From Syntrophorhabdaceae bacterium (GTDB lineage: Bacteria > Desulfobacterota > Syntrophorhabdia > Syntrophorhabdales > Syntrophorhabdaceae), in NCBI GenBank assembly GCA_963666485.2, contig CAXXUO010000001.1, positions 736,001 to 800,000 of the forward strand: DNA of 64,000 nt. The letters run 5' to 3'. Of the stretch, positions 24,028 to 37,189 are shown piece by piece. Made by a program: the position numbers and the translations under genes. Below the pieces are notes generated by a model. The model was not told the DNA's origin. It saw only the letters and a list, made by a program, of their open reading frames with translations, and ran no database searches. Within the stretch, counting starts at the first letter, position 1. Each line of letters begins with the position of its first letter.

Positions 24028-24212
24028 GGTTCAAGGTTCAAGGTTCAAGGTTCAGTGAAAAAAATAGAAACGGTTAAATTCAAAGAAAAGTGCCCGTTAA
24101 AATAGATTTTTCAAAGAACAATTTTTGTTAACTGAAGACGTTGTCTATAAAGATTCCCATCAATTTTTTTCTTTTGTTTTTCCCTTGAACTTTGAACCTT
24201 GAACCTTGAACT
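24028..24212. repeat. Inverted heptamer arrays (GGTTCAA)n...(TTGAACC)n around an AT-rich spacer
   Basis: GGTTCAAGGTTCAAGGTTCAAGGTTCA at 24028-24054; CTTGAACTTTGAACCTTGAACCTTGAAC at 24184-24211. Confidence 0.8.
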
Positions 24213-24225
24213 ATTTTTACCCCGG

Positions 24226-24253
24226 TTGACGCTTCTCAAACCGGTGTTATACT
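24226..24253 (+). promoter_or_regulatory. Sigma70-type promoter for the peptide/radical SAM locus
   Basis: TTGACG (24226-31), 16-nt spacer, extended -10 TGtTATACT (-10 at 24248-53). Confidence 0.65.
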
Positions 24254-24304
24254 TAAATTATATTTACGTGTACCGGCAGTATGCATATGAGGAGGTGATG
24301 ATCT

Positions 24305-24427
24305 ATGAAAAAAGTGGATGATGCAAGGATGCTGAAGAAGGAAGCCATGTTCTGGCGCGGCATCAAGGAAGCGCTTGCAAAGGACAGCACCAGGAAATGC
24401 CACAAATGAAAGTCCTGAAAGGGTTAG
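24305..24427 (+). CDS. Putative selenocysteine-containing RiPP precursor peptide, 40 aa: MKKVDDARMLKKEAMFWRGIKEALAKDSTRKCHKUKSUKG
   Basis: Strong RBS AGGAGGTGA at 24290-98 and ATG at 24305. TGC at 24398, in-frame TGA at 24407 and 24416 (C-x-x-U-x-x-U spacing), TAG at 24425-27. SECIS-like hairpin follows immediately, and a radical SAM/SPASM gene lies downstream. Confidence 0.75.
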
Positions 24428-24428
24428 A

Positions 24429-24446
24429 CGTTGCAGGTCTGCAACG
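24429..24446 (+). ncRNA. Bacterial SECIS-like hairpin
   Basis: CGTTGCA-GGTC-TGCAACG contains the same TTGCAGGTCTGCA core as the E. coli fdhF SECIS apex; it starts 10 nt after the second UGA. Confidence 0.72.
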
Positions 24447-24455
24447 CGAATTGAA

Positions 24456-24497
24456 AACAGGCAGCCTGTATCGATCTTACAGATCGGGCTGCCTGTT
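24456..24497 (+). terminator. Long hairpin between the peptide gene and the radical SAM gene (stabiliser or partial terminator)
   Basis: AACAGGCAGCCT...GATCT-TAC-AGATC-GGGCTGCCTGTT; weak U tail. Confidence 0.55.
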
Positions 24498-24554
24498 CAT
24501 TTGAGATCTTTCCCCCATGACCCGTACCGGGCGACACGCGAAAAGGATGCATTC

Positions 24555-25616
24555 ATGACCGAAGAATTGGAAAAGTTCGATTTTTTCATCCAGATGCACC
24601 TGACCGAGCGGTGCAACCTCTCTTGCGCCCACTGCTACCAGGAAGGCGCGGCGCCCCCGGAAATGTCGCTTACGGAAATTACCGGGGCGGTCAAGAACAT
24701 TGCGGATACGATAGACACGTGGTCCGGGATCTATGGCGTGCCATTCTCACCCAGTTTTAACGTGACCGGCGGTGAACCGCTTTTAAGGGCAGATCTCAAG
24801 GAGGTCCTTCACGTTATATCGGAACACGGCTTTGCGATCTTTCTTTTGACGAACGGGATCCTGATCGACAAAGATACATCGCGCATGCTTGCCTCGATTC
24901 CCGTCAAGGGGGTGCAGGTAAGCCTCGAAGGCCCCGAAGACATACACGACCTGATCCGCGGCAGGGGCAGTTTCGCGTCGGCCATCGACGGTGCGCGCCG
25001 CCTCCTTGATGCGGGCATCATTGTCACGTTCAATGTGACCCTCTCCCGGATCAATGCCGGGTATTTCCCGGACATGATAGCGCTCGCTGCTGCCACCGGC
25101 GTGCAGAGGCTCGGGTTTTCGCGGCTCGTCCCGTACGGGCGCGGATTGAACCTGGTCGACAAGATGCTGGGGCCGGAGGAGGTCCGGTCAATCTACGAGC
25201 AGGTCCTGTCCCGTCACATACCCGGTCTCGAGATCGTCACCGGGGACCCTCTCGCATCGCAGCTTAACGTCGGAAGCACAGTGACGGATCCCGGTGATTT
25301 TCCCTTAGGCGGATGCGCGGCCGGCATATCCGGCATCACGGTCCTTCCCGACGGGACATTGACGCCCTGCCGGAGGCTGGGCATACCAATCGGCAACCTC
25401 CTGAAGGATTCGCTTCGTGAGGTCTGGGCAAATTCGGATGTCCTCAATGCACTCCGCGACAAAACCGCATACAAGGGCAAGTGCTCAATGTGCAGCCGCT
25501 GGGCGGGATGCAGGGGATGCAGGGCGATCGCATACGCACATTCCCTGTGGCAGGGAAGAAGCGATTTCCTGGGGGAAGACCCGCAGTGTTTCATAGATGC
25601 GGGCGATGGGCAATAG
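24555..25616 (+). CDS. Radical SAM/SPASM domain protein, probable peptide maturase
   Basis: QMHLTERCNLSCAHCY (CxxxCxxC), TGGEPL, QVSLEG, SPASM CAAG..PDG..TPC..IGN...CSMCSRWAGCRGCRA...DPQC; ATG at 24555 after AAGGA. Confidence 0.92.
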   Translation: MTEELEKFDFFIQMHLTERCNLSCAHCYQEGAAPPEMSLTEITGAVKNIADTIDTWSGIYGVPFSPSFNVTGGEPLLRADLKEVLHVISEHGFAIFLLTNGILIDKDTSRMLASIPVKGVQVSLEGPEDIHDLIRGRGSFASAIDGARRLLDAGIIVTFNVTLSRINAGYFPDMIALAAATGVQRLGFSRLVPYGRGLNLVDKMLGPEEVRSIYEQVLSRHIPGLEIVTGDPLASQLNVGSTVTDPGDFPLGGCAAGISGITVLPDGTLTPCRRLGIPIGNLLKDSLREVWANSDVLNALRDKTAYKGKCSMCSRWAGCRGCRAIAYAHSLWQGRSDFLGEDPQCFIDAGDGQ

Positions 25617-25818
25617 GCGAGGGGCGAGGGGAAAATACTCAAAGAACTGGAAAAATAAGCCCCCCACTTATTTATAATATAACCCGAACCCTCCTATCGC
25701 CCATCGCCTATGACCGTACCGATTAATAAACTTTTTCCGATCGCCCCTTGCCTATCGGCCATCGCCGGACCGATTAATAAAGTTTTTCCTATCGCCTCTT
25801 GCCTATCGCCTATCGCCT
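25601..25818. repeat. Inverted heptamer arrays (AGGCGAT-like / ATCGCCT-like) with internal duplication
   Basis: GGGCGATGGGCAATAGGCGAGGGGCGA followed by three blocks of CCTATCG/CCCATCG/CCTCTTG, separated by a duplicated ACCGATTAATAAA. Confidence 0.75.
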
Positions 25819-37164: not shown

Positions 37165-37189
37165 TCTTTCAAGGTTCAAGGTTCAAGGC
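37165..37189. repeat. Short heptamer array (TTCAAGG)3
   Basis: TTCAAGGTTCAAGGTTCAAGG; single arm only. Confidence 0.65.

Follow-up and report, generated by a model that had tools for sequence, protein, structure and literature searches.

The locus consists of a short peptide gene followed by a radical SAM/SPASM enzyme gene, both on the forward (+) strand. Within the window, the whole 64,000-nucleotide stretch of DNA analysed, the peptide gene occupies positions 24305..24427. It opens with an ATG at 24305, runs for 40 codons, and closes with a TAG at 24425-24427. A ribosome-binding site (RBS), AGGAGGTGA, lies 6 nt 5' of the ATG (24290..24298, +), and almost every one of the 45 peptide genes has an (A)AGGAGGTGA-like site ahead of its start. 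Further upstream is a promoter-like site, a consensus match only, with 10 of 12 positions matching (24226..24253, +; TTGACG-16 nt-TATACT, with a TG before the -10 hexamer). The peptide frame reads MKKVDDARMLKKEAMFWRGIKEALAKDSTRKCHK-TGA(24407)-K-S-TGA(24416)-K-G-TAG, its 3' end being TGC-CAC-AAA-TGA-AAG-TCC-TGA-AAG-GGT-TAG. Two in-frame UGAs, at 24407..24409 (U35) and 24416..24418 (U38), are predicted to encode selenocysteine (Sec), and each is TGA in 45/45 distinct sequences. The last nine residues form the core, C32-H-K-U35-K-S-U38-K-G, in which C32, U35, and U38 fall in register; the leader carries a KEAxFW motif. The list of open reading frames (ORFs) holds only a 34-aa form that stops at the first TGA (24305-24409). 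Thus, the short ORF of the original prediction, with its strong RBS, its ATG at 24305, and its C32/U35/U38 register, is present at 24290-24427 and had indeed been missed by the ORF track. Most likely, this tiny gene, truncated by gene callers at the first TGA, encodes a 40-residue peptide with two selenocysteines.

The downstream gene encodes a 353-aa enzyme of the radical SAM/SPASM class. It begins with an ATG at 24555, 127 nt after the peptide TAG, and extends to 25616 (24555..25616, +). Both the Radical_SAM (68.2 bits) and SPASM (37.7 bits) Pfam domains score above gathering. The CxxxCxxC motif (C20, C24, and C27) and seven SPASM cysteines (C254, C272, C310, C313, C319, C322, and C345) are invariant in 34 orthologues, the latter number matching two auxiliary clusters. 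These domains and cysteines bear out the expectation of a full SPASM enzyme downstream of the peptide. The enzyme is without an N-terminal RRE domain, its CxxxCxxC beginning at residue 20. Its predicted structure (pLDDT 88.8) has SuiB, SkfB, PqqE, anSME, ChlB, and CteB as best folds, and its best PDB sequence matches are SkfB, PqqE, and CteB. The modelled fold therefore resembles that of peptide-modifying SPASM enzymes. In all 25 NCBIfam families shown, the enzyme scores below cut-off; these include AhbD (154 bits against a cut-off of 500), GeoRSP (150.1/400), ACGX (145.7/400), NirJ2 (137.2/500), and MftC (130.1/265).

The peptide and the enzyme are linked across genomes. Of 52 orthologous enzyme loci, 46 have the peptide upstream, with enzyme identities of 43-77%. 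This recurrence is more than chance would give, and agrees with the earlier proposal that homologous enzymes would be preceded by such a peptide. The other six loci comprise four that are cut by contig ends and two in which no peptide was found. The latter belong to genomes G026 (96% complete) and G045 (84% complete), which keep the enzyme and yielded no peptide by profile search. A weak match to the peptide profile in G026 was discarded as chance, since it lies in a polyferredoxin-like ORF of 508 aa. A search with the enzyme in a collection of genome contigs returned one true orthologue, the same as L016. As had been noted, no RRE, protease, or exporter gene is adjacent to the pair, and beyond the genus the peptide-enzyme pair is conserved with no other partner gene.

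Databases hold this peptide almost exclusively in truncated form. The peptide profile matched 236 database proteins at E <= 0.01 and, in a separate search, 119 cluster representatives. Nearly all of these representatives end exactly at the first TGA, as do 36/36 sequences fetched from the 236 matches. One database form had been called with TGA read as W. Those peptide matches inspected that bear a name are labelled "hypothetical protein", and no NCBIfam family matched the peptide at E <= 1. A search of the literature, confined to the main text of papers open without subscription, found no published account of a CxxUxxU peptide paired to a radical SAM enzyme. Together with its enzyme, the peptide appears to represent a family of modified, selenium-containing peptides that has not been catalogued.

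The genome carries the machinery for Sec insertion. We detected selA (618 and 565 bits), selB (402 and 338 bits), selD (372 bits), and tRNA-Sec (73.7 bits; gathering score 47), the full set that the original prediction required. The selD gene has an in-frame TGA and is thus itself a selenoprotein gene, and the genome also has a Sec-containing fdhA. Among genomes that bear the module, 46/48 have selA, compared with 371/401 genomes of the phylum sample. Since selA is nearly ubiquitous in that sample, its presence in module genomes says nothing specific.

A SECIS-type hairpin lies directly behind the peptide gene. It starts 1 nt after the stop codon (24429..24446, +) and consists of a 7-bp stem, CGTTGCA/TGCAACG, with the loop GGTC (GGUC). 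The stem is supported by covariation: five of the seven pairs have changed on both sides, and 97.4% of 313 cells are paired. None of 500 shuffles paired as highly, and slid controls paired at 18-59%. RNAalifold independently predicts the same seven pairs, and one locus (L059) has an entirely different stem sequence. The second G of the loop is invariant (45/45 sequences), and the loop in the window starts GG-U. Counted from the U of the second UGA, the loop G is at +22 in 27/45 sequences and at +21 in 12/45, with a range of +20 to +28; counted from the U of the first UGA, it is at +29 to +37 in the 45 sequences. The UGA-to-loop spacing in the window is 17 nt for the second UGA and 26 nt for the first.

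These features agree with the published model of bacterial SECIS elements (bSECIS). In the model, an upper stem of 4-16 bp carries a 3-9 nt apical loop (PMC13188914, Fig. 2 legend). It also gives a G at loop position 1 or 2, often followed by G or U, a UGA-loop window of 16-37 nt, and a minimum free energy of <= -7.5 kcal/mol (PMC13188914). With its 4-nt loop, 7-bp stem, loop G, distance, and energy, the hairpin falls within all four published criteria for both UGAs. The fold of 24404-24452 has an energy of -10.5 kcal/mol (centroid -9.2), most of it contributed by the hairpin, which by itself is not unusually stable (z = -1.04). An Rfam scan of 24200-24600 at E <= 10 gave chance snoRNA-type matches only and no SECIS family. 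The SECIS of the genome's own fdhA has a GGUC-type loop with GG at +22 and +23. Its loop distance equals that from U38, while its stem differs; the spacing from the U35 UGA to the loop exceeds that of fdhA by 9 nt. A motif scan of the genome for the exact hairpin type returned this site and one unrelated match. Because no other true site was found, the hairpin sequence is not common to other selenoprotein genes. The SECIS-like hairpin was thus correctly anticipated, at the right distance, and a single hairpin appears to serve both UGAs.

The pattern of variation indicates translation through both UGAs. Invariant residues of the peptide occur on both sides of the first TGA (E13, W17, C32, U35, K36, U38, and K39). 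Conservation past this TGA had been set as a check on the prediction: K36, U38, and K39 are invariant and the position of the stop is kept. An in-frame stop follows U38 after two codons in 40, three codons in four, and four codons in one of the 45 distinct sequences, and three different codons are used (TAA 20, TAG 14, and TGA 11). Among 41 unique peptide sequences, TGA-AA is invariant at both sites, and the third positions of the Lys codons that follow vary between A and G only (33/8 and 26/15). From the Cys codon to K39, changes occur mainly at third codon positions of the peptide frame; in the Sec and Lys codons, variation occurs there and nowhere else. This 3-base periodicity runs on across both TGAs.

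In two metagenomic relatives, the first Sec seems from their sequences to be replaced by Cys. One of these, L157, was seen as DNA and reads ...C-L-K-TGC-K-S-TGA-K-S-K-TGA, with the same hairpin and enzyme. The other, P0166, is a predicted protein only, and ends ...CLKCKS, with C in the place of U35. A metagenome pattern scan for Cys forms gave at least 115 stretches, 80 of which were fetched; one of 81 pattern matches, L157, belonged to the family. Among the sequences collected, these two relatives alone have Cys at U35. At U38, no Cys form was found among the 46 loci, the 120 listed of the 236 protein matches, or the 119 cluster representatives. Alignment of TGA with a Cys codon, which the original prediction regarded as decisive, is seen at the first site in L157 (TGC), with C at this place in the predicted protein P0166, and has no counterpart at the second site among these sequences.

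A second, stronger stem-loop separates the peptide and enzyme genes. This terminator-like element (24456..24497, +) is followed by TGTTCATTT and has an energy of -26.6 kcal/mol (z = -6.07), with none of 200 shuffles equally stable. A GGCAG/GGCGG...CTGCC/CCGCC hairpin occurs at the same place in 35/45 loci, and at least four T are present in the next 9 nt in 32/35. A simple terminator scan did not call the stem-loop on the + strand. It is possible that it acts as a partial terminator or as an RNA-stabilising element.

The peptide core is also overlapped by a conserved ATG in the +2 frame (24397..24399, +), formed by the A before the Cys codon and the TG of TGC. This ATG is present in 41/45 sequences, and its A is kept in 38/41 unique sequences despite being a third codon position. 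In compact loci, its equivalent is in frame with the enzyme ORF. The TGA stop of the peptide overlaps the enzyme ATG as ATGA in three of these compact loci (L062, L064, and L157). A fourth, L061, has the ATGA overlap at an in-frame ATG, but its enzyme frame is open from further upstream. Anti-termination by the overlapping ORF was considered and ruled out, as the position of the ORF stop is not conserved.

We consider it probable that the locus encodes a real CxxUxxU selenopeptide that is modified by the radical SAM/SPASM enzyme, in a family separate from SbtA/SbtM. Under this reading, SelB and tRNA-Sec would read both UGAs of the 40-residue peptide as selenocysteine. The single SECIS after the stop would direct both events; its spacing is canonical for the second UGA and 9 nt longer for the first. 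We infer actual Sec insertion at both sites from these features of the DNA. The stem-loop that follows the SECIS would probably cause peptide mRNA to outnumber enzyme mRNA. The enzyme, for which the peptide is the presumed substrate, would bind the conserved leader (KEAxFW) and modify the Cys/Sec core. In the most likely route, a Sec or Cys would ligate the open iron of an auxiliary cluster, and the 5'-deoxyadenosyl radical would abstract a hydrogen. The modification would presumably be either crosslinking through a seleno- or thioether or oxidation of Sec in the manner of SbtM; selenoether crosslinks in particular are a guess. Because the pair travels without an exporter or protease, the product may be intracellular, for example a cofactor or a metal- or redox-active peptide.

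A bolder version of this reading can be offered only tentatively, and we think it somewhat doubtful. Here the product of the module would be a selenium cofactor derived from the peptide and used inside the cell, or else a micro-peptide bridged by selenoether. Its two-Sec nonapeptide core, produced by one 3' SECIS recoding two UGAs 9 nt apart, would be stitched or oxidised by an RRE-less SPASM enzyme. In compact loci, the start codon of this enzyme would overlap the codon for the peptide Cys, and the SECIS hairpin would double as coding sequence for the enzyme. Such a module would represent a second, chemically distinct class of natural selenium RiPP, widespread in sulfate-reducing and syntrophic anaerobes.

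It is also conceivable, though unlikely, that the peptide is a small two-Sec selenoprotein that partners the enzyme and is not its substrate. It could act as the enzyme's redox partner, ligate a metal or cluster, or carry Se or S, or could instead be an independent metal-binding peptide that shares the operon. The C-x2-U-x2-U motif, often with His, does look like a metal or cluster site. Both the lack of a linked protease or exporter and the two genomes that have the enzyme without a detectable peptide are in keeping with such a role. However, the gene has the architecture of a RiPP precursor, with a conserved, helical-looking leader and a short C-terminal Cys/Sec core. It also lies immediately 5' of a SPASM enzyme, with a stem-loop between. 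In CteB, an open iron site binds the substrate Cys. By analogy with CteB, the seven SPASM cysteines counted from the alignment may likewise leave an open iron site, which would favor a substrate role for the peptide.

Regulation offers another improbable account, in which the ORF is a selenium-sensing leader peptide and the enzyme acts on some other substrate. Its two Sec codons would report the supply of Sec-tRNA, in the way that trpL senses Trp through its two Trp codons, and reading to the stop beside the hairpins or the ATGA overlap would turn on the enzyme gene. Two rare codons close together, in a short ORF just 5' of the regulated gene, suit this account, as does the terminator-like stem-loop conserved between ORF and enzyme in 35/45 loci. 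The ATGA overlap (L062, L064, and L157, and at the in-frame ATG of L061) would tie enzyme translation to reaching the stop, and the conserved aromatic W17, far from the stop, may recall arrest peptides by analogy. Nevertheless, the whole peptide is under protein-level selection (E13, W17, C32, K36, K39, and synonymous Lys changes), which a codon sensor would not need. A ribosome terminating at the stop codon, some 25 nt short of the terminator stem, would leave that stem unmelted. In five compact loci, the enzyme ORF has an in-frame start upstream of the UGAs, and thus the enzyme does not need Sec decoding. Furthermore, the U35-to-Cys swap in L157 preserves the chemistry of the residue and not the codon. 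The modelled fold of the enzyme, which would place it among peptide modifiers, also speaks against a sensor.

We regard it as very unlikely that the UGAs are plain stops. Translation would then yield a 34-aa peptide ending CHK, and conservation past that point would reflect an RNA element, for example a protein-binding repeat with a hairpin. Consistent with this, databases contain just the 34-aa form, and TGAAAG-NNN-TGAAAG is a near-repeat at the nucleotide level. Against it stand the 3-base periodicity across both TGAs, the in-frame stop held at a fixed place by three different stop codons, and the sense Cys codon at the first site of L157, where K-S-TGA-K is retained. Plain stops would likewise not predict a hairpin that fits the SECIS criteria and is similar to the SECIS of fdhA in the same genome.

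Finally, the proposal that the stretch codes in the other frame (from ATG 24397, MPQMKVLKGL...), either for a small protein of its own or for an N-terminal segment of the enzyme, draws on the ATG in 41/45 loci and on a frame that runs straight into the enzyme in L039, L040, L043, L060, and L061, but is rejected as highly implausible because invariance falls on its third positions (G of NTG and A of AAA) and variation on its first positions, the reverse of what coding would produce, and because its stop is not fixed: a 1-nt indel shifts the frame after 10 codons in several loci, the stop falls anywhere from -4 to +287 in spacer-type loci, much like the third frame, and L021, L022, L029, and L044 stop after two codons.

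If the reading of a modified selenopeptide is correct, the module would be the second Sec-containing radical SAM RiPP family, unrelated to SbtA/SbtM, and would involve new radical SAM chemistry on selenocysteine. It also provides a natural case of one bacterial SECIS that apparently serves two UGAs from outside the ORF. The truncated database forms suggest that gene callers systematically overlook C-terminal Sec cores in small peptides. As a compact two-gene system, the module is easily tested by co-expression.

The closest known parallel is the SbtA/SbtM thio(seleno)oxazole system, described as the first case of a radical SAM enzyme installing a Sec-containing RiPP (PMC9204691). The literature search outlined above turned up no other. 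This "selenobiotic" or "selenobacteriocin" system (TIGR04081 peptide, TIGR04082 maturase) shares with the present module a UGA-Sec precursor and a SECIS beside a radical SAM/SPASM enzyme, and both occur in anaerobic Geobacter/Desulfo-type bacteria (as presented in PMC9204691 and PMC13188914). In contrast, the peptide described here has no TIGR04081 match and carries C-x2-U-K-x-U-K at its extreme C-terminus, where SbtA has GGUG/SGUG. The enzyme scores 112.6 bits against TIGR04082, for which the cut-off is 350. Its match spans profile positions 199-515 of 516, and it therefore lacks the N-terminal ~190 residues of SbtM. Both partners thus fail the models of the known system, in line with the original suggestion of a separate family.

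C-terminal selenoproteins of the UXX-star and KCU-star families similarly place Sec a few residues from the stop codon (PMC13188914), a position that puts the SECIS at or beyond the end of the ORF. The "-star" families differ in their motifs (UxxT, GxGU, and CU), and none is described in the available portion of PMC13188914 as a radical SAM-linked CxxUxxU peptide. Unlike in these selenoproteins, a single hairpin is present here for two UGAs.

SCIFF/ranthipeptide and sactipeptide systems (CteA/CteB, Tte1186, PapB, AlbA, and SkfB) also have precursors of ~40-45 residues in which a conserved leader precedes a C-terminal core rich in Cys. These precursors adjoin a SPASM (or twitch) radical SAM enzyme that forms thioether bridges, and our enzyme has CteB (5wgg/5why) and SkfB (6efn) among its best matches in structure and sequence. 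Here, however, two of the three chalcogen residues are predicted Sec, the enzyme has no RRE, and its scores against thioether-maturase models are well under the cut-offs (StsB 75.6/625, SkfB 68.7/300, and AlbA 65.5/850 bits).

PqqA/PqqE and MftA/MftC require a PqqD/MftB chaperone and further cluster enzymes, none of which is linked to the present pair. The enzyme matches their models partially, at 130.1 bits for MftC and 80.9 bits for PqqE (cut-offs 265 and 381), and PqqE (6c8v) is one of its top fold matches. As at this locus, a small precursor gene lies directly 5' of the SPASM radical SAM enzyme in both systems, and their products act inside the cell.

The peptide gene (24305-24427, + strand) carries two in-frame UGAs within the core C32-H-K-U35-K-S-U38-K-G and is very probably a real selenopeptide gene. 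A ribosome-binding site (AGGAGGTGA; 24290-24298, +) and a start codon (ATG at 24305, +) can be read in the sequence, and the ORF continues as MKKVDDARMLKKEAMFWRGIKEALAKDSTRKCHK, TGA (24407), AAG, TCC, TGA (24416), AAG, GGT and TAG (24425-24427). The mechanical ORF list of the window contains only a 34-aa form of the peptide. Upstream, a promoter-like TTGACG-16-TATACT (24226-24253, +) agrees with the consensus at 10 of 12 positions; downstream, an ORF of 353 residues (ATG at 24555, ending at 25616, +) has Pfam Radical_SAM and SPASM domains. The sequence agrees with the original prediction in its ribosome-binding site, ATG, two in-frame TGAs, hairpin and radical SAM ORF. The best reading, which we consider likely, is that the gene encodes a genuine two-selenocysteine peptide and that this peptide serves the adjacent enzyme as substrate.

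The pairing of peptide and enzyme recurs across genomes. Among 61 related genomes and 401 genomes sampled across the phylum, we found 52 orthologous enzyme loci (L015-L066; identity 43-77%). Homologous enzymes had been expected to have an upstream peptide, and a homologous small ORF lies 5' of the enzyme at 46 of the 52 (45 by script, plus genome G351); the loci are kin, not independent, and counts across them overstate support. Four of the remaining six are truncated at contig ends, and in two of these (L024 and L063) a C-terminal KUKSUK is still visible at the edge. The other two, in G026 (L028/L102; 96% complete) and G045 (L042/L103; 84% complete), have an intact enzyme orthologue, and the peptide profile found no peptide gene upstream of it or elsewhere in either genome; the peptide may have been lost, have diverged or be unassembled. 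The peptide consensus is M-KK...L-x-KEA-x-FW-x3-K...C-[HRLY]-[KNS]-U-K-[SKGE]-U-K-x(1-3)-stop, with E13, W17, C32, U35, K36, U38 and K39 invariant among 27 aligned peptides, and a AAGGAGGTGA-like ribosome-binding site precedes nearly all copies. In the window, the neighbours include a Crp/Fnr-type regulator, an HD_5 (HD-domain) protein and an AI-2E transporter. Clustering of flanking ORFs at 21 loci showed nothing common beyond the genus except the enzyme itself; thus, the conserved unit is the peptide-enzyme pair.

Several repeats were also observed. The heptamer TTGAACY is repeated 3-4 times in intergenic arrays (12 motif matches versus 0 expected), which form inverted pairs (-/+) at 23200-23226/23275-23294, 24029-24055/24185-24211 and 30467-30493/30573-30599, with a further array at 37167-37186 (-). 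The Crp-family gene and the peptide promoter have one such pair between them, and a similar array lies 3' of selD on another contig; the arrays appear to be a dispersed repeat of REP-like or terminator-like type. Immediately 3' of the radical SAM gene there is a 51-nt tandem repeat (2.3 copies; 25699-25817), and the gene's stop codon is overlapped by a run of four GGGCGAG units (25601-25631).

The enzyme resembles peptide-modifying SPASM proteins. None of the best 25 NCBIfam models reached its cut-off (score/cut-off: AhbD 154/500, GeoRSP 150/400, ACGX 146/400, MftC 130/265, SbtM 113/350), and the SbtM match covers only the C-terminal two thirds of that model. In 34 orthologues, the CxxxCxxC motif (C20, C24, C27) is kept, as are the SPASM cysteines, exactly seven in number. 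Because these seven have two clusters to serve, one iron or more should be left free; CteB binds a substrate cysteine at a site of this kind. The best fold matches of the AlphaFold model (pLDDT 88.8) are SuiB, SkfB, PqqE, anSME, ChlB and CteB, all of them SPASM or twitch enzymes that modify peptides or proteins. The enzyme lacks an RRE domain. Its Atlas cluster comprises 129 radical SAM/SPASM proteins, all unnamed; phylum is known for 34 of them, most often Thermodesulfobacteriota. A second radical SAM/SPASM paralogue (34% identity; G000:C2:137146-138135) has no linked peptide and is also present in most relatives. From linkage, architecture and fold class, we infer that the peptide is modified by the enzyme. 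We regard as unlikely the alternative in which the peptide is a small selenoprotein partner of the enzyme but not its substrate.

A SECIS-type hairpin follows the peptide gene (24429-24446, +; stem CGTTGCA, loop GGTC, stem TGCAACG). Pairing holds in 97.4% of 313 cells, with both sides changed in five of seven pairs; 0/500 shuffles reach this value, slid controls pair at 18-59%, and RNAalifold recovers the same helix. At L059 the stem is wholly different (GCCGCC/GGCGGC). One G of the loop never varies; counted from the second UGA, it sits at +22 in 27/45 sequences and at +21 in 12/45, and the first UGA is always 9 nt farther from the loop. In the genome's own selenocysteine-containing fdhA, the loop is GGUCU and its GG occupies +22 and +23. 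The bacterial SECIS model given in PMC13188914 sets four criteria, including 16-37 nt spacing and an energy below -7.5 kcal/mol. The hairpin agrees with all four: it has a 4-nt loop on a 7-bp stem, G as first loop base, an energy under the threshold, and spacings within range for both UGAs (26 nt for the first, 17 nt for the second).

Farther 3', a second stem-loop (24456-24497, +) is much stronger, at -26.6 kcal/mol (z = -6.07). A stem-loop of the form GGCAG/GGCGG...CTGCC/CCGCC is found 3' of the SECIS in 35/45 loci, followed in 32 of the 35 by a T-rich run. In RiPP operons, a precursor gene is usually followed by a leaky terminator of this kind. The rival reading of a selenium-sensing leader peptide is rather improbable.

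Five lines of evidence, the covarying hairpin among them, favour translation of both UGAs. Neither TGA varies across 41 unique sequences, nor does the AA that follows each one; in the peptide frame, the sites that do vary are third codon positions, and the two Lys codons after the TGAs change only between A and G (33/8 and 26/15). Conservation was predicted to extend past the first TGA, and it does: K36, U38 and K39 are invariant, and an in-frame stop follows the second TGA in 45/45 distinct sequences, after two codons (40), three (4) or four (1), spelled TAA (20), TAG (14) or TGA (11). The genome encodes selA, selB, a selenocysteine-containing selD and selC as tRNA-Sec, as had been anticipated. 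Because selA is near-universal in the phylum sample (371/401 genomes), its co-occurrence with the module carries no weight. For selA and selB alike, the window's genome gives two matches over cut-off (C3:19436-24445; C1:229833-231191; C4:168611-170485); one selA, in a 795-aa open frame, and one selB adjoin on contig C3. Other module-bearing genomes show one selA each, except G054 with two halves of one split gene; thus, the extra copy is unconnected with the module.

Searching 1.84 billion representatives with the peptide profile yielded 119 matches, nearly all ending at the first TGA position. Alignment of TGA with Cys codons, put forward as decisive, was borne out at U35: P0166, a predicted protein among the 119, ends ...GPGKQCLKCKS, and the metagenomic relative L157, found by pattern scan and having the hairpin and the enzyme 3' of the peptide gene, reads ...AAA TGC CTG AAG TGC AAG AGT TGA AAA AGT AAA TGA, so this position is Cys in at least its sub-lineage. 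At U38, no Cys form was seen among the 46 loci, the 119 representatives and the metagenome pattern matches listed. A JGI metagenome protein, P0131, also among the 119, was called with TGA=W (…CHKWKSWKSW…); its contig was evidently assigned genetic code 4 or 25 by the pipeline. That the UGAs are plain stops beside an RNA element is very unlikely. Coding in the overlapping +2 frame (ATG 24397, MPQMKVLK...) deserves hardly any weight, since its third positions are invariant and its first positions variable in the 41 sequences, and coding selection is therefore not acting on this frame.

The A before the Cys32 codon occurs in 38/41 unique sequences despite its third codon position, where it imposes rare codons (TTA and GTA, for example). 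It makes the +2-frame ATG (24397-24399, +), present in 41/45 loci and probably the enzyme start in compact loci. These comprise 7/45 distinct loci (L039, L040, L043, L060-L062, L064) and L157. The peptide TGA stop and enzyme ATG overlap as ATGA in L062, L064 and L157; in L061 the peptide stop overlaps an in-frame ATG, with the enzyme frame open from farther upstream. In L039, L043 and L060 the only plausible enzyme starts lie inside the peptide core, in the +2 frame, and thus the SECIS hairpin is also enzyme-coding. At spacer-type loci, including the window, the ORF from this ATG has no conserved end.

Full-text searches gave no description of a radical SAM-associated CxxUxxU peptide; the pairing is absent from the available portion of Haft's 2022 preprint and from the selenoprotein table rows of the 2026 review. 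The nearest described system is the selenopeptide SbtA with its radical SAM maturase SbtM (TIGR04081/TIGR04082; PMC9204691), which PMC13188914 lists as 'Selenobacteriocin, TIGR04081, SGUG, 2 Sec'. Membership failed here for both peptide and enzyme, which upholds the suggestion of a family separate from SbtA. The chemistry could be a seleno/thioether bridge or an SbtM/anSME-like selenocysteine oxidation; a bridged putative product would resemble sacti- and ranthipeptides. The module would work like SbtA/SbtM but is not a member of that system.
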